This document shows, in pieces, positions 3,425-59,705 of a stretch of 64,000 nt of DNA; the first letter of the stretch is position 1; every line of letters begins with the position of its first letter. The notes under the pieces are model-generated. The model saw nothing but the letters and a program-made list of their open reading frames with translations, was not told where the DNA came from and made no database searches. This stretch comes from Candidatus Woesearchaeota archaeon. Its GTDB lineage: Archaea; Nanobdellota; Nanobdellia; Woesearchaeales; JBJKQO01. The position numbers and the translations under genes were made by a program. The stretch is taken from contig JBJKQO010000033.1 of NCBI GenBank assembly GCA_046705145.1, positions 4,023 through 68,022 of the forward strand. Direction: 5' to 3'.

Positions 3425-3686
3425 ATAAAGCCGTATTATATAAACTTTTCTTAGTTTTCAGACGAAAAAAAAGGAAACTTTATAAGCAAAATTACTTTAA
3501 AATAGTAACGCCAACCGAAGGTTTATTTCACAAAAAAATGTGATTTGCCCTCTCGGTTGGCGGACTCAAAAATTCGCAATAAATAACCTGTCTTCGATTT
3601 CGCGAACTTTTGAGTGAAAAAATTATGCAAAAGCTTTTATATACAAATGGCTTATATATTCCCTTATCGGAACAAAAAAAAGGTGA

Positions 3687-5689: not shown

Positions 5690-6895
5690 ATGCCGATCAA
5701 AGTTTCTGTAAAAGAATGTAAGGATTATGATCCTGATAAGGTCTATTTTGAGATAAAAGCTGCGCTTTCTGAGATAGGATATGTGTTTAAGCCAGGGCTT
5801 AACGTCCTTATCAAGCCTAATCTTCTTAGTTCTGAGCCTCCTGAAAAGGCTGTTACCACACATCCTGCAGTCCTTGATGCTGTGTGCAGGATACTAAAGG
5901 AGAACAAATGCCATATCTCTGTCGGAGAATCAAGAGGGTTCTATCGCGATTATGGGACACAAGAAGCATTCAAGGTTTCAGGACTATGGGATATAGCAAA
6001 GAAACACAACGCCAAGATAATAATCTTTGAAAAAGAAAAAGTAAGGGAGATAAAAGATGACAGCTCAGCTGTACTTAAGGAGATGCTTCTTTCAGATTAC
6101 GTGCTTACAGCAGACCTTGTGATCAACCTTCCAAAGCTAAAGACCCACAGCTTCCAGAAATATACGGGGGCTGTAAAGAACCTTTATGGCTGCGTGCCAG
6201 GAGCAGTGAAGCAGAAATACCACATGCATGCAAGAAAGATCGATGATTTTGCAGACCTCCTCCTTGACATTTACCTTCAGATAAAACCAGGGCTTAACAT
6301 CATGGACGCTATAGTCGGGCTTGAAGGCCAGGGCCCTGGCTCGACAGGAAAGCCAAAGGCCACAGGCCTGATAATCGCCTCAGAAAACGCGCTGGCACTT
6401 GACATCGTCGCTTCAAAGATAATAGGCTTTGTCCCAAAAGAGATTCCTGTGATATCACAAGCCATTAAGAGAGGGCTTATTGACATTGATGATGTCTGCG
6501 CCACAGGAAAAGATTTCCATGTAAACTACCGCAAGCCTCTCGTAGCATCGATACCTCCAGTTGTTGATAAGATCGTCTTTAACAGCGTCTACGTATTTCC
6601 ACAGTTTGACAAAGAAAAGTGCGTAAGGTGCGGAATATGCAAGAGCGTGTGCCCTGCGAAAGCAATAAATATGAGTCCGTATCCTGGATTAGACAAAAGC
6701 AGATGCATAAGGTGCTACTGCTGCCATGAGATGTGCCCTCACAGCGCGATAGAGCTGAAAAGGTCCATGATCATAAGGGCGCTTAGCGCCATGCGAAGAG
6801 CAGTGCTTGCTGCTACAAAGCCATTCCATAAAAAACAAAAAAAGGTGTGCCTCAAAGAAAATGAGGGGGCGCGTCCTAAGGTCAAAACTCCTTAA
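5690..6895 (+). CDS. DUF362 domain protein fused to a 2x[4Fe-4S] ferredoxin domain
   Basis: The N-terminal region resembles DUF362 (LIKPNL...THP...). The C-terminus carries CVRCGICKSVCP and CIRCYCCHEMCP ferredoxin motifs. Confidence 0.6.
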   Translation: MPIKVSVKECKDYDPDKVYFEIKAALSEIGYVFKPGLNVLIKPNLLSSEPPEKAVTTHPAVLDAVCRILKENKCHISVGESRGFYRDYGTQEAFKVSGLWDIAKKHNAKIIIFEKEKVREIKDDSSAVLKEMLLSDYVLTADLVINLPKLKTHSFQKYTGAVKNLYGCVPGAVKQKYHMHARKIDDFADLLLDIYLQIKPGLNIMDAIVGLEGQGPGSTGKPKATGLIIASENALALDIVASKIIGFVPKEIPVISQAIKRGLIDIDDVCATGKDFHVNYRKPLVASIPPVVDKIVFNSVYVFPQFDKEKCVRCGICKSVCPAKAINMSPYPGLDKSRCIRCYCCHEMCPHSAIELKRSMIIRALSAMRRAVLAATKPFHKKQKKVCLKENEGARPKVKTP

Positions 6896-7022
6896 CGATT
6901 AAACATTAAGTCCGTCGTGGGGGAGGCCCCATCCGGGGAAGACGGACAATTAAGTGATGAAAATAAGAGTTTTGAAGATGCTCCCCTCATTTAAATGAGT
7001 AACTAAAAAAAGGTGTGCAAAA

Positions 7023-10324: not shown

Positions 10325-10530
10325 CAAAAATTGGCTAATTACTAATATTAGCTTGCCTATACTCAAAGCAAAGCTTTTCGTAATAGCAAACATAGTTTGC
10401 TATATCTCCGACCTAAAGGTCGGAGTATTACGGCTCGCTAATTTTGTTAGCCAATTTTTGGGATAGTAAAGTCGAGCCTGTATCTACAACCTAAAGGAAA
10501 TAGTATTAGGCTCGACTTTTCTATAAATAA
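10325..10530. repeat. structured intergenic repeat, family A, copy 1 (putative ncRNA or MITE-like element)
   Basis: The variable 5' module is closed by the stem ttggctaa...ttagccaa and contains internal hairpins. The conserved 3' hairpin is aagtcgagcct-N28-aggctcgactt followed by ttctataaat. A second copy is at 50821-51040. Confidence 0.6.
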
Positions 10531-14383: not shown

Positions 14384-15286
14384 ATGGCAAAAAAGGACTT
14401 GGCACCTGGAGGACAGGCAGTTATCGAAGGAGTAATGATGCGCTATGATGAGAAGCTTGCGATAGCAGTAAGGCTTGAGAACGGCAAGATAAAGGTAAAG
14501 AAAGACAAGCTGAAGAAGAACAAGCATAAGTTTTTGAAATGGCCTTTTATCAGGGGTGTTGTGAACCTTGTGCAGATGCTTGTCGTCGGGATGAAAGCGT
14601 TAATATGGTCAGCAAACCAGTTCTCAGACGAAAAAGAGGAGCTTTCCTCAAAGCACGTGTTCTGGCTTGTCTTTTCCGCGATGCTTCTCGCAGCAGGGAT
14701 ATTTGTAGCGCTTCCTTACATACTGACAAGCCTTACAGGAGTAAAAGAGCTGAAGAATCCTTTGCTTTTCAACCTTATAGACGGGATAATCAAGACTATC
14801 TTCTTCGTAGCATACATCTGGGGCATATCGAGGATGAAAGATGTCAGAAGGCTATTTGAGTATCACGGAGCAGAACACATGGCTGTCCATTGTTACGAAT
14901 CAGGAAAAAAGCTTACTCCTGAAAACTGCATGGCGCACAAGACCATGCATCCGAGATGCGGAACAAGCTTCATAATGTTCGTTTTCGTGGTGAGCATAAT
15001 CGTATTTTCGATACTTCCTCCTGCAGTCCTGGCAATATGGCCTGGATTTGCATCTTTTGGCGTGTTCTTGCAGAAGCTGATCATGCTCCCTCTAAGGATA
15101 CTTTTCATACCTGTAATCGCTGCAATAGGATATGAGCTTCTGAAGCTTACAGCAAGGTTCCAGCATAACCTTATCTTCAAACTTTTCATATTTCCAGGGA
15201 TAGCTATGCAGAAGATCACGACAAAAAAGCCTGACAAGAAGCAGCTTGAGGTCGCGATCAAAGCGCTTAAGGAAGTCGTGGATTAA
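14384..15286 (+). CDS. DUF1385 (YqhQ-like) membrane-associated protein
   Basis: GGQAVIEGVMMR N-terminus and the YHGAEH motif characteristic of DUF1385. Confidence 0.65.
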   Translation: MAKKDLAPGGQAVIEGVMMRYDEKLAIAVRLENGKIKVKKDKLKKNKHKFLKWPFIRGVVNLVQMLVVGMKALIWSANQFSDEKEELSSKHVFWLVFSAMLLAAGIFVALPYILTSLTGVKELKNPLLFNLIDGIIKTIFFVAYIWGISRMKDVRRLFEYHGAEHMAVHCYESGKKLTPENCMAHKTMHPRCGTSFIMFVFVVSIIVFSILPPAVLAIWPGFASFGVFLQKLIMLPLRILFIPVIAAIGYELLKLTARFQHNLIFKLFIFPGIAMQKITTKKPDKKQLEVAIKALKEVVD

Positions 15287-16245: not shown

Positions 16246-16420
16246 TCTTGATAATGTCAGCATCAGGCTCGGCTGTGCTCCAGATAATGCTTCTCTCGTT
16301 GAAGCCCCGGATGGGGTGTCGCCAAGAATATCTTGGCGGACTTGCGAACAAGTTCGCAAGCGTCCCCCTCAACTCTGAACACATTCATCAGAATAGCCTC
16401 GCAAATTGATGCTGACATTA
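16246..16420. repeat. structured intergenic repeat, family C, copy 1
   Basis: Perfect 17-bp terminal inverted repeat tgataatgtcagcatca...tgatgctgacattatca encloses conserved modules ggctcggctgtgctcc, tcgccaa-N-ttggcggac, gcgaacaagttcgc, gttgaagccccgg and cccctcaactctga. Confidence 0.65.
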
Positions 16421-16477
16421 TCAAAAAAATGTTTTTTAGAAACTTTTATATAAATAATACGCTCAAGAACAGATTAA

Positions 16478-18904: not shown

Positions 18905-19045
18905 CAAAGGCGATCATGATCACCTCTTTTTCCCAGCAGAACGCTTTTCCTCGGAAAAGCGTTTTGCCGGGTTTTATAATCCTAATCACCTCTTTTCCCC
19001 AGCAAGAATCTCCTCGTGAGATTCTTGCCAGGGTTTTAACAATAG
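18905..19045. repeat. two tandem ~65-nt hairpin-containing repeat units
   Basis: tcacctctttt(t)cccagca + hairpin + tgccgggttttaWaat occurs twice. The hairpin arms differ but stay complementary (aacgcttttcc/ggaaaagcgtt versus aagaatctcc/ggagattctt). Confidence 0.5.
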
Positions 19046-19129: not shown

Positions 19130-20785
19130 CTAATACATGTCTCCGCCCATACCGCCAGGCATTCCAGGAGGCATCCTTGGCTCAGGACCTTTTCCTCCTG
19201 CAATCACATCATCTATCCTAAGTATCATCTCTGCAACTTCTGATGCTGACGAGATTGCCTGGGTCTTGATCTTCAGAGGCTCTATAACGCCTGCTTTCCA
19301 GGCGTCAGTGACCTTTCCTTTAAAGACATCTATCCCTGCCCATTTCTGGCCCTTGTCATGCGCAGCCTTAAGCTCCGTCACTACATCGATAGGGTCAAGA
19401 CCTGAGTTTTCTGCAAGTGTCCTTGGCACGATCTCAACTGCCTCTGCAAAAGCCATAGCAGCAAGCTGCTCCCTTCCAGAAAGCGACTCTGCAAACTTCC
19501 TAAGCCCTCTTGAAAGCTCGATCTCAGGTGCGCCTGCGCCTGCAACAACTCCCTTGCTGTTGAGCGCTGCGACAATATCCCCTATTGCATCTTCCATCGC
19601 CCTCTTGATCTCGTCAATAACATGGGTTGTGGCCCCCTTAAGGAGGATAGTCACAGATTTAGGGTTCTTGCAGTCAGTGACATAAGTAAAAGAATCGTCT
19701 CCAACTCTTTTCTCATAGACCTCTCCTGCTGCTCCAAGGTCATCCTTTGACATGGTCTTTATTGAGTTGACCACTTTTGCGCCAGTAGCCCTTGCAAGAG
19801 CGTCCATATCTGATTTCTTGACCCTTCTAGCGACATATATGCCTTTTTTTGAGAAGAAATGCTGTGCGATGTCATCAACCCCCTTCTGGCAGAAGACGAC
19901 GTTTGCGCCTGTTGCAGTGATCATCTCAACCATGTTTTTAAGGGTCTTCTCCTCCTGGTCTATGAATGCCTGAAGCTGCGAAGGATCTGTTATCTGGATC
20001 TTTGCGTCTGTCTCAGGACCTTTTATCTCGATAGCTGAATCAACCAGCGCAATCTTTGCGCTCTTGACTGATTTGGGCATCCCTGAATGTACCCTTTCCT
20101 TGTCAAGAACGATCCCTGAGACCATCTCTGAATCCTCAACGCTTCCCCCGACGTTCTTCTCAAGCTTGACATTGTCCCTGTCTATCACTATCCTGTCGCC
20201 TTCCTTCTCAAGGACGTTCTTTATAGCCTTGACAGCAAGATCTGCAAGCCTCTCCTTTGATGATTCAGCACCTTTTCCGATCATAGCTGTCATTGCTATC
20301 TTCTTTAAGGTAGCCTCGTCTTTTTCAGAGACAGTCTCAGCTATCTTCATAAGTATCTCATGAGCCTTTTCAGCTGCCCTCCTATAACCTTTTACGATGA
20401 CAGTAGGGTGTATATCCTTGTCTATGAGCGCTTCAGCGTTCTTAAGAAGCTCTCCTGCGATTATGACCGCTGTCGTAGTACCGTCGCCTACCTCGTCTTC
20501 CTGCGTCTTAGCGACCTCAACTATCATCTTAGCAGAAGGATGCTCAATGTTTATCTCCTTTAGTATCGTGACGCCGTCGTTTGTAACTATGACATCTCCG
20601 AGAGCATCAACTATCATCTTATCCATGCCTTTAGGGCCAAGAGTTGTCCTTACTGTCTCGGCTACAGCCTTAGCTGCAAGAATGTTGTTGTGCTGGGCAT
20701 TTCTGCCAGTGGTCCTCTGAGTACCCTCAGGAAGTATAAAAATAGGTTGTATGTTATTTGACATCCGTATCACCCCGTTATTCAT
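19130..20785 (-). CDS. ths: thermosome subunit (group II chaperonin)
   Basis: [27 protein letters not shown] and a GGMGG C-terminal tail. The likely start is MSNNIQ at 20764, preceded by GGGGTGA. Confidence 0.9.
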
Positions 20786-22653: not shown

Positions 22654-22711
22654 GGCAACTTAATCAGAAATTGTTATGCTTGTTCTTGTAGGTATAATTA
22701 TATAAGGCCAA

Positions 22712-22975
22712 ATAGGTTTTCGGCTGTGTCTCAAATCTTACTCTGCAAGGTCCGCATCAGCCTTTTAAGAAAAGTCTGGCGAAAACATAACGGGCGTGAA
22801 GCCCGTTGTCGCGGCTTTCTTATAAATCAGATAGCCGCGATGCATGACTTTATGTCATGCTTCTTTTGGTCCAGCTTTTGTAAAAGGTGGGGCTCGGCTG
22901 TGCTCCTGAAGTTACAAGTATCGTTGAAGCCCCGTAGGGGCCAACCCCCTCAACTCTGAGCACATTCATCAGAAG
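22712..22975. repeat. structured intergenic repeat, family C, copy 2
   Basis: Outer inverted repeat cggctgtgtctc...gagacacagcc. The internal ~110 nt is near-identical to copy 1 (ggctcggctgtgctcc...gttgaagccccg...cccctcaactctga...tgatgctgac). Confidence 0.6.
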
Positions 22976-23063
22976 AGCCTCGCAAATTGATGCTGACTAC
23001 ATTCGAGACACAGCCCAAGTTTTCAAAAACCTTTTATACTTATTCTGAATCAGTCATGTCAAC

Positions 23064-23735
23064 ATGAGTGACCAGCCCGACATAAGCAATATGAGCCCTG
23101 AGCAGATAGCTGAGATGCAGAAGCAGCAGTGCATATTCTGCCATATCGCAAGCGGGAGGGTCCCTGCAAAAAAGATTTTTGAGGATGACAAGTGCGTAGC
23201 AATTCTTGACATAAATCCTGCTGTCAAAGGACATGTCATACTCATACCAAAAGAGCATTATCCAGTAATGGCCCTAGCTCCTTCTGAGATCGTCAAGCAC
23301 ATATTCACGATAGCAAAAGCTGTCTCAAACACCCAGCTTAAGGCATTCAAGGAAGACGGAGTGGACGGTACAACTATCTTTGTCGCAAACGGAGCTTCTG
23401 CAGGCCAGAAAGCGCCGCACTTCATGGTCCACATAATACCAAGAAGGGAAGGTGACAAGCTGGAGATAAAGATACCTGAATACAAGGCGAACCAGGAACT
23501 CATGATGCAGGTAAGGACCAAGATGATCGATGCAGTGAGGAAAAAGCTGGGCTCAGCATACGAGATAAAAGAGATTGACAAGCCAAAGAAGGAAAGCAAA
23601 GCTGAAGAAGAAAAAGAGGAAGAACCAGAAGAAGATGAAACAGAGGATGCCATAGAATCCAAAGAAAACGAAGATAACGAAGAAAAAGAGGATGACGAGG
23701 TATCCCTTGATGACATCACAAAGCTGTTGAGATAA
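23064..23735 (+). CDS. HIT-like protein with a degenerate histidine triad (HxMxH) and a polyacidic C-terminal tail
   Basis: HIT fold motifs (CIFCHIASGR, NPAVKGHVILIPKEH); the triad reads GQKAPHFMVHIIPR. C-terminal tail EEKEEEPEEDETEDAIESKENEDNEEKEDDE. Confidence 0.55.
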   Translation: MSDQPDISNMSPEQIAEMQKQQCIFCHIASGRVPAKKIFEDDKCVAILDINPAVKGHVILIPKEHYPVMALAPSEIVKHIFTIAKAVSNTQLKAFKEDGVDGTTIFVANGASAGQKAPHFMVHIIPRREGDKLEIKIPEYKANQELMMQVRTKMIDAVRKKLGSAYEIKEIDKPKKESKAEEEKEEEPEEDETEDAIESKENEDNEEKEDDEVSLDDITKLLR

Positions 23736-23927
23736 ATTTTGCTGACAGCATCATAAGGTTTAGGCTTTTAATGTTTGTCAGCACAGAGGTCAGGGGTTGT
23801 CCCTTAAAAAAGCTGAGGCTTTTTTAAGTCCGCCACACTTATTTGGCGACACTTACGGGGCTTGACCGACACTGTCTGAAAAATACTCACAAGCCTAAAA
23901 GATGCTGACAGCAAAAAAAGAATAAAA

Positions 23928-24464
23928 ATGGCAGAATGCGAAATATGCGAGATCGCGTCTCATGACACCGCACTGAAACTTTATGAGGATGACAAGGCGA
24001 TAGCCATGCTTCATCCCCTGCCTTGCGCCTTAGGGCATATCATAGTCTTCACCAAGAAGCATTACCCTATAATAGAACAGATACCTGATTATGAGATAGG
24101 ACATATTGCAGACATCGCAAACAAGCTCTCAGTCATACTGTTTGAGAACCTTGGAAGTTCCGGAACAAACATAATTATCAACAACGGACTATCAGCAGGC
24201 CAGAAGTTCCCGCATGCAGTGATCGATGTAATACCCAGAAACGAAAATGACAAGCTAAAGCTGGACTGGGTTCCAAAAAAAGCAGAGGAAGCTGAGCTTG
24301 CAGATGTTGAGTTCATCCTCAAGGAGAACGGCAAGAAGATAGGCATAGTCGAAAGAGAGCCTGAAGTCCCTCTTGATATCGACAGCAAGCCGACAAAGCT
24401 AAATGACGAGACTGATGATCCTGAGAAGAACTACCTCATAAGGCAGCTAAGAAGGATTCCTTAA
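23928..24464 (+). CDS. HIT-like protein with a degenerate triad (HxVxD)
   Basis: CEICEIASH...GHIIVFTKKH...GQKFPHAVIDVIPR; only the first His of the triad is retained. Confidence 0.5.
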   Translation: MAECEICEIASHDTALKLYEDDKAIAMLHPLPCALGHIIVFTKKHYPIIEQIPDYEIGHIADIANKLSVILFENLGSSGTNIIINNGLSAGQKFPHAVIDVIPRNENDKLKLDWVPKKAEEAELADVEFILKENGKKIGIVEREPEVPLDIDSKPTKLNDETDDPEKNYLIRQLRRIP

Positions 24465-33407: not shown

Positions 33408-33896
33408 TTACATCACCGGGATAAACTCCTGCTGTGTCATAAATGCTTCTCTTTTCATATCCTCGATGATATAGTAGGATTGTTTCCTTACTATTTTAAA
33501 CTTTTCCTCTATCTTCTCTATGAACTCCTCTAAGGATATGATGTCTTTGAAAAGCACTTCAACCATGAAGTCATAATCCTGGTTTACCCTGAAACAAGAA
33601 TTGACGTTTTGGTGGGCCATAAGATATTTTCTTAATTCATCCTTATCATTCTTGTTCACCTTAAGAAAAACTGTCGACCTTATTGAGTACCCCAGCTTTG
33701 CAAAGTCAAAAAGAGAAGTATGTTTTATAATTATATTTTTTTCATGCATCTTTAGCCTGTCAAAAAGTGTTGAGACTGGCATGTTTATCTTTTTGCTCAG
33801 TTTTGTCAACTGGACCCTGGCATTCTGCCTTAGGCATGATAAAAACATCAAATCCTCTTCTTTTGCTAGCATCATCATCACCTCCATTGATGCCAT
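33408..33896 (-). CDS. Lrp/AsnC family transcriptional regulator (single HTH + RAM)
   Basis: HTH_AsnC-like N-terminus and a RAM-like C-terminus. Confidence 0.7.
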   Translation of the reverse strand: MASMEVMMMLAKEEDLMFLSCLRQNARVQLTKLSKKINMPVSTLFDRLKMHEKNIIIKHTSLFDFAKLGYSIRSTVFLKVNKNDKDELRKYLMAHQNVNSCFRVNQDYDFMVEVLFKDIISLEEFIEKIEEKFKIVRKQSYYIIEDMKREAFMTQQEFIPVM

Positions 33897-33983
33897 TTCG
33901 GATAATCCGGAATGTTTCCTTCTTATTCCAATTTATTACAATATTATCGGAATTTATATATTTAAAATTATCTGCATATAATT

Positions 33984-35000
33984 TTGTATATTAGTAAAAT
34001 ATATAAAGCAAAAATATTTAATGTACAAAAAAATAACTCAAATGATAAAATGGACAATACTGACAGAAAGATCATGGCAGTGCTCGATAAGAATCCGAGA
34101 GCAACACAATCTGAGATATCAAAACAGCTTAAGATATCCCAACAGGTAGCAAATTACAGGATAAAAAAGCTTTTTAGCTCAGGCACGATCAACAAAGCAA
34201 GCGCATTGATAGACTTCATGGGCCTGGGATACTCAAAATATATCCTTTTTTTCAGGCTAAACCAATATGTAAAAGTAGAAAAAGACCTCTTTGATTTTTT
34301 CTCAAAGAACCCAAATATATGGTGGGCTGCAAAAGTGGGCTCATTCTATGATGTGATGGTGATGACCTTACAGAAGGACTTTGTCAAGTTCGAATCGTTT
34401 GTAGAGAGCATAAGCGACAAGTTCCCAAACTGCCTGGGAGAACATGTATTCCTCCACGTGATACATCACGAGCTCTATGACCACCTTATATTTGACAGGG
34501 AAGGTGAACTGAAAAGGAGGATGGGTTACTGTATAAGGTCTGACCCTGTAAAGATCAAAAAAGAGGATTATGCTCTTCTTGACATTCTCGCAAATGACTG
34601 CAGAAGATCGTCTCTAGCCATAGGAAATGAGCTAGGACTATCCTATAAGACTGTGCAAAACAAGATCAAGTCTCTTGAAAAGGATAATATTATTGTGGGC
34701 TACAGGCTGTTTCATAACGTAAAACCCCACAAAGCCTATCTAATCCTGATATCCTACTCCCAATTTTCAAAAGAAAAAGAACAGAAGCTCCTTAGCGAAG
34801 CATATCAGGTCTCACAGATAACCATGTGGTGGAAAGTATTCGGAAGGTATAACCTTATACTTCATGCAAGATGCCATTCATATGAAGAACTTCAAGACAT
34901 GTTCACTAAGATAAGAGAAAAACACGGTATAATCAAGACCTACAGGCTTATTCCTGTATTCAAAGATATCCTCATAAACGCATTCCCCCATGCAGACTAA
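33984..35000 (+). CDS. double-domain ('tandem') Lrp/AsnC-like regulator
   Basis: Two HTH_AsnC-like segments (RKIMAVLDKNPRATQSEISKQLKISQQVANYRIKKL and ALLDILANDCRRSSLAIGNELGLSYKTVQNKIKSL), each followed by a RAM-like domain. The likely start is MDNTDRK at 34050. Confidence 0.6.
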   Translation: MYISKIYKAKIFNVQKNNSNDKMDNTDRKIMAVLDKNPRATQSEISKQLKISQQVANYRIKKLFSSGTINKASALIDFMGLGYSKYILFFRLNQYVKVEKDLFDFFSKNPNIWWAAKVGSFYDVMVMTLQKDFVKFESFVESISDKFPNCLGEHVFLHVIHHELYDHLIFDREGELKRRMGYCIRSDPVKIKKEDYALLDILANDCRRSSLAIGNELGLSYKTVQNKIKSLEKDNIIVGYRLFHNVKPHKAYLILISYSQFSKEKEQKLLSEAYQVSQITMWWKVFGRYNLILHARCHSYEELQDMFTKIREKHGIIKTYRLIPVFKDILINAFPHAD

Positions 35001-35467
35001 CCAAAAAAGGGATGTTCCTGACCCATCATAAACGCTTCTCTTTTAAGCTCTTCCACTATGAAAAAGGTCTTGATCTTCTTTACCTTAAACCTTGACTCCA
35101 GCTCTTCAATAAAATTATCCACCTCCCCCACATTATCAAATATCCCCTCTACCATGAAATCAAACCCGTTATTGATCTTAAAGACCGAGTTTAAGGAGGT
35201 GCTCCTAATTAGAAACTCTCTTAGATTCTCCTTGTGAGCTAAATCTGATTTGAGGAGTATCTTAACAAGAGTGTTATACCCTGCTTTCGCAAAGTCAATA
35301 AGACAGGTATGCCTTTTTATTATCTGACCCTCATTCCTTTGTAGCTTCTCAAAGATTGTTGATATAGGTATCCCTGTCTCATGGCTTAGCCTTGTCAATG
35401 ATAATCTTGAATTTGACCTAAGATGGGTTATTATCTGTTGATCTCTTGTCTGCATCGTTCTCCCCAA
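34997..35467 (-). CDS. Lrp/AsnC family transcriptional regulator
   Basis: IITHLRSNSRLSLTRLSHETGIPISTIFEKL HTH plus a RAM domain. Confidence 0.7.
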   Translation of the reverse strand: MGRTMQTRDQQIITHLRSNSRLSLTRLSHETGIPISTIFEKLQRNEGQIIKRHTCLIDFAKAGYNTLVKILLKSDLAHKENLREFLIRSTSLNSVFKINNGFDFMVEGIFDNVGEVDNFIEELESRFKVKKIKTFFIVEELKREAFMMGQEHPFFG

Positions 35468-35543
35468 AACATTGTATTGACTCTAAAGTAGTGTCTTGAT
35501 TTTTCAAAATATTTAAATATATATCTGTATTTATTAGTAAAAA

Positions 35544-36500
35544 ATGAATAAAAAAATATATGAAACCAAAATAAATTACCAAAATATAGATATAATCAGT
35601 AAAAATATTATTTTTCTCCTCTCATTAGATTCCAGGATATCTGTTTCAGAGCTTGCAAAAAAGCTGAAGATAACGAGAAAGATGGCAGAGACAAGGATGA
35701 ACAATCTTTACAAGAACAGGATAATCAACCCCCTGCTCATATACAATTACAGGGGGCTTGTAAAATCCACAATACTCATAAAGCTTCTCAAGTTCAACAA
35801 AAAGGTCATAAACTCATTGCTCAAAGTGGATAACCTGGTAAAGCTAAAAGAGACTCTCGGACAATACGACCTTGCTTTGCTGTTTATAACAGAAAACAGG
35901 GAGGAACTAAACCTTGCGCTGACCAAGATAAGCTCCGCTCTCCACGGACAGATACAGAACATGGATGTGATGATCCACGAATATGAGGACACACTAGGCT
36001 ACAAGTCTTTCTGTGATAACCCTGAACTGCTAAAAGAGTACAACCTCCTTGAACCAGATCAGGATTATATCCTATCAAAAGATGATATGGTCCTAATAAA
36101 AAATCTCATATCAGATCCGGTGCAGCCATACAAAAACATTGTCAGCAGCACTGGATGGACATACACCAAAATTAGATCTATGATGTCCGACCTTTCCAAG
36201 AAAAACATAATCCGATTTTCTGTAGACCCAGATTATAAGCTTATGGGCCTTGAATACCACAACATACTTGTCAAGATCGACCTTGGGATGTACAAGCAAT
36301 TTGAAGCGAACATACAAAAAGAGGCAAGGATACACTGGATGAAAAAAGGCATCGGCACATGGGACTATATCCTTTCTGTATGCGCAGAGAGCATAAGCGA
36401 GTTCATACAGGTAACAAGAGAGATTCGCGAACAAAATGAGGATATAATCCTAGATCTTTCAACTCTTATATCCAATGTGCATATGACAAGAAAAAACTGA
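35544..36500 (+). CDS. double-domain Lrp/AsnC-like regulator (divergent paralog)
   Basis: Two HTH-like segments (FLLSLDSRISVSELAKKLKITRKMAETRMNNL and VLIKNLISDPVQPYKNIVSSTGWTYTKIRSMMSDL) with RAM-like regions. Confidence 0.5.
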   Translation: MNKKIYETKINYQNIDIISKNIIFLLSLDSRISVSELAKKLKITRKMAETRMNNLYKNRIINPLLIYNYRGLVKSTILIKLLKFNKKVINSLLKVDNLVKLKETLGQYDLALLFITENREELNLALTKISSALHGQIQNMDVMIHEYEDTLGYKSFCDNPELLKEYNLLEPDQDYILSKDDMVLIKNLISDPVQPYKNIVSSTGWTYTKIRSMMSDLSKKNIIRFSVDPDYKLMGLEYHNILVKIDLGMYKQFEANIQKEARIHWMKKGIGTWDYILSVCAESISEFIQVTREIREQNEDIILDLSTLISNVHMTRKN

Positions 36501-37097
36501 TCATTTCTCGATATAGCCTATGAAACTCAGGTCCCTGTCCTTACCGTTATAATCCAGCCCATAGCCTACAACAAACATGTTAGGTATGTCAAACCCTATA
36601 TAATCCAGGTCTACAGGCGACTTTCTCCTCTCTTTCTTGTCCAAAAGCACGCATATCCTGACTTCAGAAGCTCCTTTTTTTAGCAGGTGAGCCTTAAGGA
36701 AGTTCAGTGTGTTTCCAGAATCTATTATGTCATCGACAATCAACACATGCTTCCCCTTAAGATCCTCCTTAACGTCAAGATCGACTCTTATCACGCCAGT
36801 GCTTTCTGTGCCCTTGTAGCTTGTCACTTTCACAGGAGCATACTCAACATTCATCCCGGCAGAATTAAGCCCCCTCATTAGGTCCGCAAAAAATACGAAT
36901 GCGCCTGTAAGGACGACAACACAGAATATGTTGTTATCATCCCCGCAAAAATCCTTTTTTATCTCAGCAGATAACGTCTTTATCCTTTCCCTGATCTTTT
37001 CTTCGCTGATAAGCTCTTTTATTTCCAATATATCACCCTGAAAAAAGCTGACTCCAAATGGTATATAAATGTTTACTTTATCTGAGGTTTGTCTCAA
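36501..37097 (-). CDS. hpt: hypoxanthine/guanine phosphoribosyltransferase
   Basis: Type I PRTase PRPP-binding motif VLIVDDIIDSGNTL. Confidence 0.7.
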   Translation of the reverse strand: MRQTSDKVNIYIPFGVSFFQGDILEIKELISEEKIRERIKTLSAEIKKDFCGDDNNIFCVVVLTGAFVFFADLMRGLNSAGMNVEYAPVKVTSYKGTESTGVIRVDLDVKEDLKGKHVLIVDDIIDSGNTLNFLKAHLLKKGASEVRICVLLDKKERRKSPVDLDYIGFDIPNMFVVGYGLDYNGKDRDLSFIGYIEK

Positions 37098-37380
37098 GAC
37101 TCGCTTACGCTTCGGTTAGCATCAAACTCGGCTTTACTTCTTATTTTAATTCTATCGCCAAGCAAGTTTGGCGGACTTAAAATTGGAGATTTTAAGCTTG
37201 ACGGACTCACGAACAAGTTCGTGAGAATCGTTGAAGCCCCGGAAGTGTCGCCAATTATGATTGGCGGACTTTGAAAAGTTGCACTTTTCAAAGGGACAAC
37301 CCCCTCAACTCAGGAATACTAATCAGAGCAGAGCCTCGTATTACTGATGCTAACACACTTGAGACACACCCCCCAACTAT
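37085..37380. repeat. structured intergenic repeat, family C, copy 3
   Basis: Closing inverted repeat gttagcatca...tgatgctaac. Contains two tcgccaa-N-ttggcggac hairpins, cacgaacaagttcgtg, gttgaagccccgg and cccctcaactc modules. Confidence 0.55.
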
Positions 37381-37595: not shown

Positions 37596-38021
37596 TTAAT
37601 TCTTAGAACGCTTAATCGCTTTTACTATGTTTTCCTTGACTTTCTCCATCTCCCCTTCCGCATACTTTGAGCCTGGCCAAAGCCTTAGCCCATCTCCCTC
37701 AAACCTTGTCATTATGTGAAGGTGCGCGTGAGGGACAACCTGCCCTGCCTTAGGCCCGTTGTTAAGGCCGAGGTTATACGCATCAGCACCTACAGCTTCT
37801 ATCACTTCTGGAACGATCTTCTTAGCGACAATGATAAGATCTGAAAGAACATTGTCAGGGATGTCTTCAAAGTTCTCGTAATGCTCTTTTGGGACAATAA
37901 GCGTATGACCCTTGTTTATGGGATTTATGTCAAGAAAGGCTATGCAGCTTTCTGACTCATAAACCTTTGCTGAAGGTATCTCTCCCTTTATTATCTTGCA
38001 AAATATGCAATTACCAGTCAT
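37596..38021 (-). CDS. HIT family protein with a canonical histidine triad
   Basis: GQVVPHAHLHIM (HxHxHxx). Confidence 0.75.
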   Translation of the reverse strand: MTGNCIFCKIIKGEIPSAKVYESESCIAFLDINPINKGHTLIVPKEHYENFEDIPDNVLSDLIIVAKKIVPEVIEAVGADAYNLGLNNGPKAGQVVPHAHLHIMTRFEGDGLRLWPGSKYAEGEMEKVKENIVKAIKRSKN

Positions 38022-39174: not shown

Positions 39175-39280
39175 TGGACCCGGCGGGATTTTCACAATCC
39201 AAAGTATTGAACCCGCTGCCTTCCGCGTTCCGGTCTCAAGAAAAGCCAGGCGGACACTCTACCGATGAGCTACGGGCCCA
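39175..39280 (-). tRNA. tRNA-Ala(GGC) with two introns (anticodon loop and T-loop)
   Basis: Acceptor GGGCCCG/CGGGTCC with the G3:U70 Ala identity pair, D-arm GCTC-ATCGGTA-GAGT, anticodon stem TCCGC/GCGGA with loop CTGGC[16-nt intron]AC, and T-arm GCGGG-TTCAA[17-nt intron]AT-CCCGC. The A discriminator is followed by CTTTTTTT. Confidence 0.6.
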
Positions 39281-47353: not shown

Positions 47354-48066
47354 GTTTTTGCCACCATCTTATAATAGACCACAGCAAGCGTGCTAAAACC
47401 TACAAGCTGGACTATCTCTGAGACCACATAAAGCATCTCAGGGTCGAAAACAGTGAAAATGAAAAGCACTTGGCTTAGGGTAAGGGCTGCAAATGAGAAC
47501 GCTACAAAAAGCGTGTTTGCATTCTTAAGCTTGGTGTAATTGTTTATCGAATGCCATGTGATAAGCAAGAGGAAAAGCGCTGAAGTCATGTAAAACAGGA
47601 AGTACATCTGGAAGGCAAGGAAGTACTGTGCTGTAGAAGCTGCCGCTATAAGCCCGCAAAAGTATGCGAAAAAGATTATCTTGTCCTTGTCTTTCGATTG
47701 GCTGACTATGTAGTATATGCCTGCAAGGCCCATCAGCATGACAAACCTGTAAAGGATAAGCCCTATAAGAGAGAATATGGGGTAAGGATAAAACGTCCTT
47801 ATCGCGTGCGATACAGTCCCCATGTCTACCTTCTCAAACACATGATAATACAGGTTTATGTTCATGGCTATCCTGATAAGGAAAGAGAATGACAGTGCTG
47901 CAAATGATATCCCGAAATACTTGTATTTTGCCTGTTTTGAGAACTTGTAGACCCTAAAGCTCAGGAAAGCCAAAAGAAGGGTCACTATAACTGAAACTGT
48001 CTCAAATCCGATCTCCAAACTAGAGAACCACCCCGGGCTAAAAGCTAGCTTAAGCATAATTGTCAA
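47350..48066 (-). CDS. polytopic membrane protein
   Basis: About 7 hydrophobic helices. Confidence 0.5.
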   Translation of the reverse strand: MTIMLKLAFSPGWFSSLEIGFETVSVIVTLLLAFLSFRVYKFSKQAKYKYFGISFAALSFSFLIRIAMNINLYYHVFEKVDMGTVSHAIRTFYPYPIFSLIGLILYRFVMLMGLAGIYYIVSQSKDKDKIIFFAYFCGLIAAASTAQYFLAFQMYFLFYMTSALFLLLITWHSINNYTKLKNANTLFVAFSFAALTLSQVLFIFTVFDPEMLYVVSEIVQLVGFSTLAVVYYKMVAKT

Positions 48067-48384
48067 CTACTGTTTTGTCCTTTATAAGCTTTGTGGAAAA
48101 TTAATCAGATTCGGCTTCTTTAACCTCTGTTCATAATGTATTTATAAAGGTTTTATCATAATAATGTGTATCAAGATCAAACACCTCAAACCTAACCTTG
48201 CTTTCCCGGAGCCTTCCGGGAGGCAATTATAATCAATCAAACACCTCAAACCCAAAAAAATGCATACTTGGCCTTCACCAAGCCAAGATGCAGTTTTTTA
48301 TTATACTCACCAAAACACCTCTTTGAACACACACCTTGCGTTTTTCCGCAATCCTTTAGGGGTTGCGGAAGGTTTTTCTTATCC

Positions 48385-48993
48385 TTATATATCCAAAAGG
48401 TTTGTACTATCATGAGTAACATATAGATCAAGTTTTTTTCCACTCTCTGAATTTTCTAGATTGACCCTTGTCCCGCCTAAACCTGCTGAGACACTTGCAA
48501 CAGAAACTTCCCTCCCGATATCACTCATATAAAGACCTGAATGCCTATCAAAAGTAAGGGTTACCTTTCCTTTTTCTCTTTCTGGAATCTTAGGTTTGAC
48601 CCTAAATCCCTGCTTGTACCCATCATATCCCTGACTGGCACCACACAACACTGTCCTATTCTGTAAGACTACACCCCAATTATCAAATAAGTACCCAAGA
48701 ATATCTTGTGCCACAACAGCACATCTTCTTACTTCATCAAACCCATGTTTTATCTGTCCAAGCGATGCTGAAAGATTTGTTATTGCATCTGGGTAAGCTC
48801 TCCATAGCAGATTATTTTTTGTTGTTACAACAGCAGATTCAGATTCCTTGGTATGTTTTAATAACTCTTCTAAGGGGTAAAGGCTACCATCAATCCTCAC
48901 CCTTATAGAGATATCAGTTATAGTATCATAACCTTCTCCATCCCCCCTATAAGGAAATGACAAACATTGTTCTATTATCATTTTTTCCCCCAT
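48385..48993 (-). CDS. hypothetical protein (third gene of a three-gene cluster)
   Basis: 202 aa, no known motif. Confidence 0.4.
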   Translation of the reverse strand: MGEKMIIEQCLSFPYRGDGEGYDTITDISIRVRIDGSLYPLEELLKHTKESESAVVTTKNNLLWRAYPDAITNLSASLGQIKHGFDEVRRCAVVAQDILGYLFDNWGVVLQNRTVLCGASQGYDGYKQGFRVKPKIPEREKGKVTLTFDRHSGLYMSDIGREVSVASVSAGLGGTRVNLENSESGKKLDLYVTHDSTNLLDI

Positions 48994-50820: not shown

Positions 50821-51040
50821 GAATAACGCAAAGTCGCTAATTACCAATATGCTCGCCCTATCCCTTGCCTGAAGGTAGGGGTATTAGGGCTCGCACTAGT
50901 GTTAGCGACTTTGCGGAACAACAAAAATCGAAGATTTTTGTGTTCAATTAAAGCTTCGCTTTAATTTGAATAGGAAAGTCGAGCCTGTATCTACAACCTA
51001 AAGGAACTAGTATTAGGCTCGACTTTTCTATAAATCAAGA
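50821..51040. repeat. structured intergenic repeat, family A, copy 2
   Basis: The 5' module is closed by gtcgctaa...ttagcgac (compensatory relative to copy 1). The 3' hairpin aagtcgagcctgtatctacaacctaaaggaactagtattaggctcgactt is about 97% identical to copy 1. Confidence 0.6.
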
Positions 51041-56156: not shown

Positions 56157-57164
56157 ATGGCAGATCTAGATAAGATTGATATTAAACTACTGGCAATCCT
56201 GGAAGAAGATGGCAGACAATCCTTATCGCAGATAGCAAAAAAGCTCAATACTTCTCAACAGGTTGTCAGCTACAGGATCAAATCTCTTGAAAAAAGGAAT
56301 ATCATAGGAGGATATTATACATTCATAAATTTTCTAAGGCTAGGCTATACCAGTTTCAGGACGATGATATCATTCAGCAACATAAATAAAACCAAACATA
56401 AGGAGATCATCTCTTTTCTTATGGATCATCCGAACGTCCTTTGGCTTGTTGACTGCAGCGGAAGGTGGGACCTGATAATTAACTTTCTGGCAAAAAACAT
56501 CATCCAGTACGAATCGATGTTCAATGAGTTCAGAAAAATGTTTCCAGACCAGATCCAAAACTATGACATACTCCCAACAGTTGAAGTGTCTTATTTCGGA
56601 AGAGATTACATAATGAAAAAACATAGGGACCTCAGAAAGAGTTCACTTCTCGGAAAAGAGTACGGGACAGACAGCCTGGACTTACTAAACTATAACATCC
56701 TTAAGATGATCTCAAAAAATGCAAGAATCCCTGCAGTTGAGATAGCAAATAAGCTTAAAGTTAGCCCTAACACTGTAATCCTTCGGCTTAATGAGCTAAA
56801 AAGAACCGGCATGATACAAGGTTATACCACGCTACTTCATCTGGATTATACAGGTTATAGCAGTTACAAGGCATTAATAAAGATATTTAATACGACCGAA
56901 GAAAAGGAAAATGCAATAATCAATAACCTGAGGTCTAACGTGAATGTAGTTGGATTCGTGAAACTTGTAGGATCCTGGAACTTTGAGATAGAATTTGAAG
57001 TAGAAACAAATGAGCAGATGATTGAACTCACAAGAGATATTAGAGACCGGTTCAGGGACAATATCAAGGAATTTGAGATAATCCAACTGCTTCACGAGTA
57101 TAAGTATGACTTCTTTCCTGGAGACCTGCTGGAAGACAACCCTAAAAAAAGCAATAAAAAATAA
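56157..57164 (+). CDS. double-domain Lrp/AsnC-like regulator, array paralog 1
   Basis: DIKLLAILEEDGRQSLSQIAKKLNTSQQVVSYRIKSL and NILKMISKNARIPAVEIANKLKVSPNTVILRLNEL HTHs, each followed by a RAM-like domain. C-terminus LHEYKYDFFPGDLLE. Confidence 0.65.
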   Translation: MADLDKIDIKLLAILEEDGRQSLSQIAKKLNTSQQVVSYRIKSLEKRNIIGGYYTFINFLRLGYTSFRTMISFSNINKTKHKEIISFLMDHPNVLWLVDCSGRWDLIINFLAKNIIQYESMFNEFRKMFPDQIQNYDILPTVEVSYFGRDYIMKKHRDLRKSSLLGKEYGTDSLDLLNYNILKMISKNARIPAVEIANKLKVSPNTVILRLNELKRTGMIQGYTTLLHLDYTGYSSYKALIKIFNTTEEKENAIINNLRSNVNVVGFVKLVGSWNFEIEFEVETNEQMIELTRDIRDRFRDNIKEFEIIQLLHEYKYDFFPGDLLEDNPKKSNKK

Positions 57165-57174
57165 CAAGGATCAA

Positions 57175-57243
57175 TCATTCAACCCTGCATTCACAATTAT
57201 CAGTTTCGACAGGTTTTAACTCATAATAGTGTTCTTCGACCAT
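57175..57243 (-). CDS. micro-ORF P5 (MVEEHYYELKPVETDNCECRVE)
   Basis: 22 aa. GGAGGG Shine-Dalgarno sequence 8 nt upstream. Divergent from Lrp paralog 2; its stop lies 10 nt past the stop of paralog 1. Confidence 0.45.
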   Translation of the reverse strand: MVEEHYYELKPVETDNCECRVE

Positions 57244-57357
57244 TTTAGTTCCCTCCTAAGTTATAATAATGTATAACTTCGAGATTAATTAAAGTATACG
57301 CCATATTTTTTTGTTAAATCGAAATATTTATATATAATTATTATATACCACAAAAAT

Positions 57358-58365
57358 ATGGTAATACTTGATAAAACCGATTTAAAGTTATTGTCGGAAT
57401 TAGATGATGATGCAAGACAGACCGTTTCAAAGATAGCAAAAACCCTAAACACCTCACAACAGGTCATCAGTTTCCGAATTAACTCCCTAAAGAGGAAAGA
57501 GATCATAAGCGAATACTACTCAATAATTAATTTTACAAAGCTGGGTTACACAAGTTACAGGACAATGATACGCTTCAGCAACATAAACAAGCAAAAACAC
57601 CAAGAGATCATAAAATATTTAACAGATCATCCAAACGTGCTATGGCTCGTCGACTGTGGTGGAAGATGGGATCTCCTCGTTAACTTTTTGGCAAAAGATA
57701 TAAAACAATACAGCATCATGTTCAATTCTTTTAAGAGCAGATTCCCGCAGCAGATAAGAAATTATGATGTCTTGACCACAATCGATTTTGTCTATCCTGG
57801 AAGAGCCTATTTATTTGGGCGAAAACCTGATAAGCCTAACAGGCCTTATGTAGGGATAGAAAGAGAGAAAGTAACCCTAGACAACACAGACTTAAACATC
57901 CTAAAAATGATATCTGAGGATGCGAGGCTAAGTAGTGTGATAATAGGCAATCACTTGGGGATAAGCTCTAATACTGTTATGACCCGGATAAAAGAGATGG
58001 GGAAAAAAGGGGTTCTTCTTGGAGCAAAGCCCCTAATCCATCTCGAAAACACCCCTTACAGGGGATATAAGGCACTTATTAAGTTTCAGGACATAACAGA
58101 AGAAAAAGAAAAAAGCATCATAAGCTTCCTGATGGAATTCGAGAATATAGTCGGCATAATAAGGATGGTGGGGATGTGGGATTTTGAGTTAGAGATCGAG
58201 TCAGAAAAACAGGAGGATGTGGTCGATATGATGAGATCCCTTCGGGACAGGTTCCATGATGTGATAAAAGAGTTTGAGATGTTCCCTTTGTTTCACGAAT
58301 ATAAGTACAACTTCTTTCCCAGAGATCTGCTGGAAGAGCATTCTGGCGAAAATATAACAAAGTAA
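57358..58365 (+). CDS. double-domain Lrp/AsnC-like regulator, array paralog 2
   Basis: Same architecture as paralog 1, about 50% identical. C-terminus FHEYKYNFFPRDLLE. Confidence 0.65.
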   Translation: MVILDKTDLKLLSELDDDARQTVSKIAKTLNTSQQVISFRINSLKRKEIISEYYSIINFTKLGYTSYRTMIRFSNINKQKHQEIIKYLTDHPNVLWLVDCGGRWDLLVNFLAKDIKQYSIMFNSFKSRFPQQIRNYDVLTTIDFVYPGRAYLFGRKPDKPNRPYVGIEREKVTLDNTDLNILKMISEDARLSSVIIGNHLGISSNTVMTRIKEMGKKGVLLGAKPLIHLENTPYRGYKALIKFQDITEEKEKSIISFLMEFENIVGIIRMVGMWDFELEIESEKQEDVVDMMRSLRDRFHDVIKEFEMFPLFHEYKYNFFPRDLLEEHSGENITK

Positions 58366-58443
58366 CAAAAATAATAAGCCCTGATGTTTCTATCCGGGTT
58401 ATTGCGCAAAATATAATTCGTGTTCAAGCTGATTTAGGCAATA

Positions 58444-58512
58444 TCACTCCATCCTAGCTTCGCAATCATCAGGGTCTAATTCTTCCAATTTGAATTTTGT
58501 TTCTTCCTCCAT
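58444..58512 (-). CDS. micro-ORF P6 (MEEETKFKLEELDPDDCEARME)
   Basis: 22 aa. GGAGGT Shine-Dalgarno sequence 6 nt upstream. Variant C-terminus DCEARME-stop. Confidence 0.4.
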   Translation of the reverse strand: MEEETKFKLEELDPDDCEARME

Positions 58513-58637
58513 TTTATACCTCCAAGCAGGTTATACTGCTCATAGTATATAGTGACATGAAAAATAATAAAACCTGTATGTTATAATATTTGTAAAATAG
58601 GAAAATTTATATAATAAAAGAAAATATAACAAAAATT

Positions 58638-59636
58638 ATGAAAAAAATTGATAAGATAGATCTCAAGATCATGTCTGCTTTAGACGATGATGCACATTGT
58701 TCGCTGTCTAGGTTAGCTAAAAAATTACAAACCTCCCAACAGGTCATAAGCTTTAGGCTGCAGTCCCTTAAAAAAAGGGGCATAATCAGCTCATTCTTTA
58801 CAGTTATTGATTTTACAAAGTTGGGATATACCAATTACAGGACAATGATCCGCTTTAGTAATATTGATGAAAAACGACATAAAGAAATAATTTATTTCCT
58901 AAGGGATCATCCCAGTGTGCTTTGGATCGTTGACTGCAGCGGAAGGTGGGACATTATAGTAAACTTTATGGCAAAGGACATAAGAAGGTATAACCTAATC
59001 ATAAGGGAATTTATCAATAGGTTTCCTGACCAGATCCAAAACTATGATGTTCTCACGACAGTTGAGCTATTGTATTTCAAAAGGGATTACTTTGACAAGA
59101 ATCATAGAAAAATAGATATCCTGCCCTATTTTGCTGATAACACTGAAATAATGAGTTTGGATGATATGAATATCAAAATCCTTGACCTTATATCAGAAGA
59201 TGCTAGACTTAGCTCAGTCGTAATAGCAAATAAGCTAAAACTAACTCCAAAGACCGTCCTTGCCAGGATAAAAGAGATGAAAAAAGAAGGTATCATCTGG
59301 GGATTTAAGCCGCTTATACATCTCGAAAACACCCCTTACCGCAGCTTTAAGGCTTTTGTGAAATTCCAAAACATAACTGAACAAAAAGAAAAACAGATCA
59401 TAGCCTTTTTTTCAGATAAGGCTAATGTGGTAGGTGTGATCCGTATGATAGGTCTTTGGGATTTTGAGGTGGAAATCGAGTCAGAAAGCCAGGAATATGT
59501 GATAAAACTCACAAGGGATTTCAGGGATAGATTTAAAGACATAATCAAAGAATTTGAGATAGTCCCCCTATTTCATGAGTACAAGTATAACTTCTTCCCA
59601 AGAGAACTAGTTAAAAAGAATGATACAAATACATAG
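58638..59636 (+). CDS. double-domain Lrp/AsnC-like regulator, array paralog 3
   Basis: Same architecture. C-terminus FHEYKYNFFPRELVK. Confidence 0.65.
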   Translation: MKKIDKIDLKIMSALDDDAHCSLSRLAKKLQTSQQVISFRLQSLKKRGIISSFFTVIDFTKLGYTNYRTMIRFSNIDEKRHKEIIYFLRDHPSVLWIVDCSGRWDIIVNFMAKDIRRYNLIIREFINRFPDQIQNYDVLTTVELLYFKRDYFDKNHRKIDILPYFADNTEIMSLDDMNIKILDLISEDARLSSVVIANKLKLTPKTVLARIKEMKKEGIIWGFKPLIHLENTPYRSFKAFVKFQNITEQKEKQIIAFFSDKANVVGVIRMIGLWDFEVEIESESQEYVIKLTRDFRDRFKDIIKEFEIVPLFHEYKYNFFPRELVKKNDTNT

Positions 59637-59642
59637 TCTCAT

Positions 59643-59705
59643 TTTATTCTGCCCTAGTCTCACAGGCATCAGGTTCTATTTTTTCGAATTCTTTGTTTTT
59701 TATCA
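59643..59705 (-). CDS. micro-ORF P7 (MIKNKEFEKIEPDACETRAE)
   Basis: 20 aa. GGAGGT Shine-Dalgarno sequence 7 nt upstream. Variant C-terminus ACETRAE-stop. Confidence 0.4.

Follow-up and report, generated by a model that had tools for sequence, protein, structure and literature searches.

The 64,000-nt stretch of archaeal DNA analysed here (contig JBJKQO010000033.1, positions 4,023 to 68,022; "the window") carries, among ordinary chromosomal genes, several copies of a hairpin-rich intergenic element, which we call family C after a preliminary description of the stretch. The host is a Woesearchaeota-like archaeon of the DPANN group; the best named relatives of its thermosome gene (19130-20785, minus strand) belong to Candidatus Woesearchaeota/Nanoarchaeota, and the nearest relative is 81% identical. 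A Pfam scan of ~58 open reading frames of the window returned gap, pgk, thermosome, Rpp21, TruD, GINS, ScpA and the like, with a large number of AsnC-type regulators and three proteins of the HIT family; it detected neither a transposase nor an integrase or reverse transcriptase. Genes of the window have TATA-like boxes upstream and frequently also Shine-Dalgarno sequences built on a G-run, of which GGGGGUG, GGGGUGAU and GAGGGGA are examples in this genome.

Five copies of an intergenic element

The preliminary description placed three copies in the window, and reading of the sequence, shared exact blocks, a profile search and folding scores all bear it out. Each of the three (c1-c3) is recovered by the family profile (nhmmer) at E = 2e-23 to 9e-43; exact 12-14-mers are common to them and absent elsewhere in the window, in which TCGTTGAAGCCCCG and CCCCCTCAACTC each occur exactly three times; and z-scores of the minimum free energy of the copies relative to shuffled controls are -6.5 to -9. 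The extents first given were approximate: the true ends are 16248-16424 for c1, 22722-23015 for c2 and 37086-37370 for c3, all on the plus strand. Three was also too low a count of full copies. Motif searches turned up c4 (23737-23916, minus strand), which lies between two HIT genes, and a covariance model built from c1-c4 only (R1) picked up a diverged copy absent from the model, c5 (6859-6992, minus strand), at E = 0.022, E-values from the covariance model being rough. The apex 12-mer of c5, CCCCGGAUGGGG, is identical to that of c1. The pattern CCCC-N3-5-GGGG-N2-6-CCCC is present twice in the window, where 0.05 occurrences would be expected.

The copies are homologous, 134-294 nt long and non-coding, and the five scaffold copies, a number that covers the 64-kb window, lie in both orientations relative to neighbouring genes. 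Scaffold identity is 86% between c1 and c2, 59-67% among c1-c4, and 34-41% to c5. Seven sequences make up the evidence for the family. Overlapping open reading frames of 54-77 amino acids do not keep their frame; protein coding was rejected and a conserved reading frame is excluded because c1 and c2 differ by 44 nt in length between conserved blocks, which breaks any frame.

The repeats are a real and, as the preliminary description had supposed, previously undescribed family of intergenic elements. Rfam 15, whose models include hammerhead, twister, C/D and H/ACA sRNAs, Pyrobac-HINT and RsaE, holds no match to them at either gathering or lax thresholds; lax E-value scans over the copies gave chance hits only, of at most 27 bits. 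The sole gathering-threshold match in the whole window (45.5 bits) is a tRNA gene at 39175-39279 on the minus strand, missed by ARAGORN; it contains two introns, one in the region of the anticodon loop (20 nt) and one in the T-loop (19 nt).

A scaffold of nested helices

All copies form nested helices, P1-P2-P3, around an apex, described here for the C-rich strand. P1 is GUCAGCAUCA/UGAUGCUGAC in c1-c4; P2, which in c1-c3 reads GC-UC-GGCU/AGCC-UC-GC, contains a symmetric internal loop, UC/UC; the P3 consensus is GUUGA/UCAAC; and the apex reads (A/U)(G/U)-CCCC-G(G/U)A(U)-GGGG-N3-4-CCCCC. An additional helix, P2b (GUGCUC/GARCAC), holds in c1-c3, not in c4 or c5, and was omitted from the consensus. 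Both c2 and c3 have an extra outer stem, with UGUCUC/GAGACA in common.

In c1, a perfect P1 of 18 bp (16248-16265/16407-16424) encloses P2 (GC-UC-GGCU at 16267-16274, AGCC-UC-GC at 16395-16402), P3 (GUUGA at 16298-16302, UCAAC at 16369-16373), the apex hairpin CCCCGGAUGGGG (16305-16316) and the closing C-run (16364-16368). The corresponding parts of c2 are the outer stem (22722-22732/23005-23015), P1 (22750-22759/22988-22997), P2 (22892-22899/22976-22983), P3 (22923-22927/22950-22954) and an apex, CCCCGUAGGGG-CCAA-CCCCC, at 22930-22949. The outer stem of c3 (37086-37098/37358-37370) is followed inwards by P1 (GUUAGCAUCA at 37115-37124, UGAUGCUAAC at 37345-37354), P2 (37126-37133/37332-37339) and the start of P3 (37230-37234), with GGGACAACCCCCUCAAC at 37293-37309. 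On the minus strand, c4 has P1 as UUUUGCUGUCAGCAUC (23901-23916) and GAUGCUGUCAGCAAAA (23737-23752), P2 as UUUAGGCUU (23891-23899) and AAGCCUAAA (23759-23767), and P3 as GGUCA (23863-23867) with UGACC within 23788-23803, a compensatory version of GUUGA/UCAAC. The most diverged copy, c5, also on the minus strand, has an outer stem AAAUGAGGGG (6983-6992)/CCCCUCAUUU (6859-6868) and an inner P1, GCAUC (6977-6981)/GACGC (6871-6875); its P2 is replaced by CAAAACUC (6967-6974)/GAGUUUUG (6883-6890) and its P3 by GUCCGUC (6941-6947)/GACGGAC (6910-6916), while the apex, CCCCGGAUGGGG-CCUCCCCC (6919-6938), is kept.

The closing inverted repeats, which had been described as different in each copy, are the same helices with compensatory changes: the 18-bp repeat of c1 extends the shared P1, and that of c3 (gttagcatca/tgatgctaac in the DNA, GUUAGCAUCA/UGAUGCUAAC in the RNA) is P1 with a compensatory change of C-G to U-A. 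When c1-c4 were aligned automatically, 91% of cells paired, against ~38% with partners slid, and five pairs changed on both sides. A curated alignment of six sequences gave 86.8% paired, against 26-42% slid, with both sides changed in 20 of 29 pairs and observed values attained in none of 500 shuffles; this alignment was handmade (N for gaps, register kept by MAFFT) and fitted to the structure, so that its figures lean that way. Given the same six sequences and no structure, RNAalifold recovered P1 and P3 as well as P2 in both its parts, and at the apex chose the alternative pairing, of GGGG with the 3' C-run. The apex is thus a C-run/G-run/C-run that allows two hairpins, each excluding the other, in which the G-run is predicted to pair with either C-run and one C-run would always be left unpaired. 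Complementarity of the helices and the apex appear to be the only parts conserved across copies. Scaffold identities of 34-86% together with compensatory helices point to long-term selection on structure rather than to recent copying.

Several known structures were considered and rejected. For a hammerhead, the sequence CUGAUGA is found in c1 and c2 on the reverse-complement strand only; a twister-like AAGCCCGGAU has no Rfam match; C/D and H/ACA boxes are in the wrong order or lack the ACA; and a C+.G-C triplex would need a strand polarity other than that present, which is wrong for the Py-Pu-Py order.

Hairpin modules inserted in loops

Much of the length variation is due to insertions. A module of two hairpins, HP1 (U-CGCCAA-loop-UUGGCG-GAC-U) and HP2 (a variable A/U-rich hairpin starting UU(U/A)(G/A)AAAA), occurs five times in the window and is absent from the ~190 kb of related loci examined. 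In c1 (16319-16359) GGGG precedes it and GCGU-CCCCC follows, which places it in the second apex loop. Removing the module from c4 (23804-23849, minus strand) or the second module from c3 (37248-37292, inside the apex) restores CCCC-G(G/U)AA-GGGG-ACAA-CCCC(C), and these modules therefore sit in the first apex loop. An additional module of c3 is found with an extra hairpin in J2 (37155-37224). There is no HP1 module in c2, which has instead a branched domain of 129 nt (~22760-22888) in J1, between P1 and P2, and there are no insertions in c5. Insertion sites are thus the two apex loops, J2 and J1, and this confinement to loops and junctions suggests an RNA whose helices matter.

The fifth module stands alone at 3509-3613 (plus strand), upstream of the gap promoter, where the preliminary description saw a partial relative of the family. 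The element is indeed there; it is not a truncated scaffold but an independent module, comprising HP1 (CGCCAACCGA.../...UCGGUUGGCG-GAC, 3509-3565, with an inner hairpin) and HP2 (UCAAAAAUUCGC...GCGAACUUUUGA, 3566-3613).

Two motifs were tried on the module and rejected. In a K-turn, tandem sheared G.A/A.G pairs come after a bulge of 3 nt; as a K-turn (L7Ae site), HP1 has the 3' GA after UUGGCG, but UGU, UAU or UAA, with no GA, precede CGCCAA on its 5' strand. The boundaries of HP1-HP2 do not form the 3-4-3 motif of a bulge-helix-bulge intron.

Occurrence in related genomes

Relatives were compared at the thermosome locus. One of them, L019 (GCA_964354685.1; 75% identity in thermosome), has an element 36 nt from the thermosome start, with the order AAAAAUCCAUCC / UGGCG(G)CAG / hairpin / GC-UC-GCC / A-CCCC-GGAU-GGGG-CGU-CCCCC / GGC-UC-GC / CUGCGCCA / GGAUGGAUUUU. 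It is probably a member of the family, though it was found by motif and not by R1. The thermosome of L058 is 91% identical to that of L019 in protein and 84.7% in DNA, and the orthologous element of L058 has flanks ~97% identical and the same P1, with an interior only ~50% identical; its helices are those of the L019 element, but their sequences are exchanged, for example CAAAGC/GCUUUG versus CUUUUGC/GCAAAAG.

The thermosome-adjacent element is absent from L059, L060 and L062, and no family member was found in L039-L043 or in L061. A scan for AAGCCCCG..TCGCCAA..GGCGGAC gave only high-GC chance matches (17 in GTDB genomes, 18 in JGI metagenomes, one in IMG/VR), and a stricter three-block pattern gave none in metagenomes; CCCCGGATGGGG..CCCCC in IMG/VR gave 14 high-GC chance matches, none with flanking helices. 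The family is thus sporadic, with fast turnover, structure being kept rather than sequence.

Conserved structure with variable sequence is also a property of integron attC sites, and a role at the DNA level, whether as a cruciform, as a palindrome bound by protein or as a recombination or attC-like site, would fit the strand symmetry of the structure and the different interiors of the orthologous L019 and L058 sites. We consider it highly improbable: the attC R''/R' consensus (RYYYAAC...GTTRRRY) is absent, the GTT/AAC order of P3 being reversed (GTTGA...TCAAC, and varying in c4, c5 and L019); neither an integrase nor a cassette array is present in a neighbourhood of housekeeping genes; and a conserved unpaired apex with insertions in loops is typical of RNA.

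Three of the five copies abut HIT genes (the third HIT gene, 37596-38021, adjoins c3). We treat this as coincidence: the copies are not consistently oriented, and the element is missing from relatives that have HIT genes.

Strand and transcription signals

Promoter-like sequences were scored against TTTAWATA, for which the background is 1.9% at one mismatch or fewer and 12.7% at two or fewer. On the C-rich strand, four elements have a TATA-like box with at most two mismatches 22-31 nt upstream: c2, c3, c5 (as measured from its inner stem) and the L019 copy. That of c2 (TATAATTATATAA, 22693-22706, plus strand) has one mismatch and its centre is ~22-26 nt upstream of where the outer stem starts; that of c3 (TATATAAA, 37062-37069, plus strand), ~25 nt before the outer stem, is probably shared with the divergent PRTase gene. 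Runs of at least five T follow only c1, c5 and the L019 and L058 copies, on the C-rich strand; the T6 run of c1 (16432-16437, plus strand), 8 nt past P1, is terminator-like for archaeal RNA polymerase. The tRNA gene served as control, and shows a TATA box ~26-31 nt upstream and a T7 run 3' of the gene. From these promoter- and terminator-like signals we infer that separate small RNAs may be transcribed from the C-rich strand, which is probably the strand of the functional RNA.

The G-rich strand would be the relevant one if the elements were cis-acting 5' leaders or intercistronic RNAs regulating the gene downstream (scpA, PRTase, HIT2, pgk, thermosome). The reverse strand folds equally well, a few A.C mismatches become G.U on it (L058 P4, P2b of c1 and c3), five of six copies in G-rich orientation have a same-strand gene directly downstream (the gaps of c4, c5 and L019 being 11, 30 and 36 nt, and c2 having no such gene), and c3, c4 and c5 lie between co-directional genes. 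For c1, c3 and c5, however, the TATA box of scpA, PRTase or pgk is situated at the edge of the element or between it and the gene; the element would then be no part of the mRNA and not a 5' leader. Runs of T lie 3' of the element on the C-rich and not the G-rich strand, and the downstream genes share no functional theme. A riboswitch or cis leader was likewise rejected on its neighbours, which comprise scpA, an unknown gene, three HIT genes, PRTase, pgk, DUF362 and thermosome in mixed orientations. Altogether a leader function seems very unlikely.

Small RNA genes or a spreading repeat

On balance we lean towards reading family C as a lineage-restricted set of sibling small non-coding RNA genes, expressed from the C-rich strand, in this Woesearchaeota-like archaeon. 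Of the two natures offered in the preliminary description, structured non-coding RNA or MITE (miniature inverted-repeat transposable element), the former fits the evidence and an ordinary MITE, as defined in PMC10969869, is not supported. The copies share no terminal sequence: their closing stems, UUGAUAAUGUCAGCAUCA (c1), GGCUGUGUCUC (c2), GGUUUGUCUCAAG (c3), UUUUGCUGUCAGCAUC (c4), AAAUGAGGGG (c5) and AAAAAUCCAUCC (L019), have in common just complementarity and a short CAUC. Target-site duplications are likewise missing, the flanks of c1-c5 containing no adjacent direct repeats; the only AT-rich similarities there are out of register, at c2 by 3 nt (GTTTTC) and at c4 by 5 nt (ATAAA). Divergence is large and accompanied by compensatory change, and the Pfam scan of the window found no transposase-bearing parent.

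Several observations weigh against small RNA genes. Five copies in 64 kb, and the presence or absence of copies between close relatives that share the order of genes, resemble the spread of a repeat element. The nearest relative, L018, keeps the gene order thermosome, 48-aa gene, HIT, HIT; both c2 and c4 are absent from this syntenic block, so that copies behave as insertions, and the HIT genes that overlap in L018 (7854-9105) are separated in the window (23064-24464) by a 192-nt spacer filled entirely by c4. Signals for strand are uneven: both strands fold with similar z-scores, making folding energy uninformative; the perfect TATA of c1 (-27) belongs to the opposite strand, the C-rich strand having only one farther off, at -44; neither c4 nor c5 shows a convincing TATA box of its own, c4 having just a weak ATATTT inside the HIT2 coding sequence. 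Moreover, c4 and c5 lie 11-30 nt from the start codons of HIT2 and pgk, and a divergent gene begins right beside c4, c5 and the L019 copy. The L058 apex, CCUACAC-UUC-GUAUAGG, has no C-run, so the seed proposed below is not universal. Finally, the six-sequence alignment was fitted by hand, and its L019 member did not come from the first model.

Some of these points would be explained by an archaeal counterpart of ERIC, BOX or REP sequences: a non-autonomous, modular, imperfectly palindromic intergenic repeat, spreading by insertion or recombination, mostly co-transcribed with its neighbours and acting through its RNA hairpin on mRNA stability, processing or termination. The density and the use of both orientations, the absence of c2 and c4 from the L018 block, with c4 exactly between HIT genes that overlap there, and a thermosome-adjacent copy in L019 and L058 and not in L059, L060 or L062 are all as expected of such a repeat. 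So are length variants that result, as in ERIC, from insertion at fixed internal sites, modularity, as in BOX, and a second family in the window (10325-10460 and 50826-50918) with the same GC-UC-G.C/G.C-UC-GC helix motif; transcripts of MITEs, too, typically form stable stem-loops (PMC10969869). On the other hand, consistent target-site duplications are absent, terminal stems differ between copies and present no evident common binding site for a transposase, the Pfam scan of the window found neither transposase nor integrase, helices are compensatory despite scaffold identities of only 34-86%, and c2 and c3 carry well-placed TATA boxes of their own. We regard a spreading repeat of this type as the main rival, possible if somewhat doubtful; it and the small RNA genes are not mutually exclusive.

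Other structured elements and repeats

The second family of structured repeats, at 10325-10460 and 50826-50918 (plus strand), has minimum free energy z-scores of -8.3 and -9.0. Its long closing stems covary (CAAAAAUUGGCUAA/UUAGCCAAUUUUUG versus CGCAAAGUCGCUAA/UUAGCGACUUUGCG), its inner helix, GC-U(C/U)-GCC...GGC-UC-GC, has the UC/UC loop that is the motif of P2 in c1-c3 of family C and of P3 in L019, and its apices are CCU(A/G)AAGG hairpins, to which the first copy adds two further ones. Directly after each copy comes one of two near-identical hairpins of 62 nt, AUAG(U/G)AAAGUCGAGCCU...AGGCUCGACUUUUCUAU, at 10463-10524 and 50970-51031 (plus strand). A hairpin at 48335-48375 (minus strand), UUCCGCAACC-CCUAAAGG-AUUGCGGAA, in the intergenic region 48066-48385, has the same loop, CCUAAAGG, as the second family.

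The L019 element has a C-run apex, and that of L058 (CCUA..UAGG) resembles the second family. Because of this resemblance, family C, the second family and the L019 and L058 elements might be seen as a superfamily of modular archaeal RNAs with a common scaffold and GC-UC-G.C helix motif, in which HP1-HP2 cassettes insert independently, in various loops of the RNAs that host them, and apical modules are exchanged between orthologous loci. We think this unlikely; were it true, the superfamily would be an RNA-structure-targeted system of mobile or recombining cassettes, of a kind undescribed in archaea.

Further structured sequences lie downstream of the thermosome gene, where 18915-19040 (plus strand) consists of two tandem hairpin units (AUCACCUC units), each of which opens with (G)AUCACCUCUUUU, similar to an anti-Shine-Dalgarno sequence, and continues as CCC(C)AGCA-stem-CCUCG-stem-UGCC(R)GGGUUUUA. 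Near the thermosome locus of relatives there is a conserved non-coding stretch, GAAAAGGUAAAU...UAUUUAAGG..UUUGGUUUGGUGGG, at ~9770-9860 in L019, ~1975-2055 in L058 and ~575-635 in L062 (all minus strand), the first two being ~97% identical. L039 has at 14623-14750 (minus strand) an intergenic element with a 17-bp closing stem, AAAACCACCAACAUAGG/CCUAUGUUGUUGGUGGUUUU, and two long hairpins, whose core is unlike that of family C.

Among protein-coding genes, 56157-63878 (plus strand) comprises six tandem paralogs of ~333 amino acids each, double winged-helix regulators of AsnC/Lrp type, each with a TTTATATA box ~30 nt before the ATG; three further AsnC-type genes lie at 33408-36500.

Discussion

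If family C elements are small RNA genes, each RNA, read from the C-rich strand, would be one long irregular hairpin of nested P1, P2 and P3. At its apex, CCCC-GGAU-GGGG-N3-4-CCCCC, the G-run would pair with one C-run and leave the other single-stranded, and extra hairpins would be tolerated in loops: HP1-HP2 in either apex loop or in J2, and the 129-nt domain in c2. By analogy with known regulators, the free C-run might pair with G-run Shine-Dalgarno sequences such as GGGGGUG and GGGGUGAU and so modulate translation, and HP1 could be an accessory protein-binding site, since it is the sequence of its stem, not its loop, that is conserved; we offer this mechanism, the likeliest of those we considered, as a speculation of low probability.

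DPANN archaea have tiny genomes and are mostly uncultivated, and to our knowledge almost nothing is known of their non-coding RNAs; literature searches on structured RNAs in DPANN returned nothing relevant. A multi-copy RNA with structure under selection would provide an entry point to post-transcriptional regulation in the lineage. The features that set the family apart are its bistable C-G-C apex, its insertable hairpin modules and its rapid turnover between close relatives, and it would bear also on how structured RNAs grow through loop insertions. If the elements are instead spreading repeats, they would be the first structured repeat of ERIC/BOX type to be described from DPANN, relevant to genome plasticity, assembly and binning.

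The closest known parallels to the proposed RNAs are the C-rich small RNAs of Firmicutes, RsaE/RoxS and LhrC1-7. These also occur as several structured paralogs per genome, with a conserved unpaired C-run beside a hairpin; the pairing proposed for family C is likewise to G-rich ribosome-binding sites, and its host has G-run Shine-Dalgarno sequences. Family C differs in being archaeal, in its much longer nested hairpins with a terminal stem of 10-18 bp and in its modular inserted hairpins, and it has no similarity to them in sequence or by covariance model (Rfam negative). In the number of hairpin modules, which varies among paralogs (none, one or two HP1 per RNA and one standing alone), it recalls sponges of the CsrB/RsmZ type, but the conserved part of HP1 is the stem (CGCCAA/UUGGCG and GAC), not the loop, and there are at most two modules per RNA.

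Among repeats, ERIC (IRU) and BOX elements are similar in being imperfect palindromes of ~100-300 nt, intergenic or within operons, modular, in either orientation, with variants due to insertion at fixed sites and with presence or absence varying between relatives; the resemblance is functional only, with no homology. Family C is far more diverged (34-86% identity), with compensatory helices, its own TATA box or T-run in several copies, and no duplication of TA or another target. Prokaryotic MITEs such as Sulfolobus SM1-SM4 (PMC10969869) are, like it, small, non-coding, multicopy inhabitants of AT-rich intergenic regions whose inverted repeats fold as RNA stem-loops; unlike them, family C has neither conserved terminal inverted repeat sequences nor target-site duplications, and no parent insertion sequence was found among the reading frames scanned in the window.

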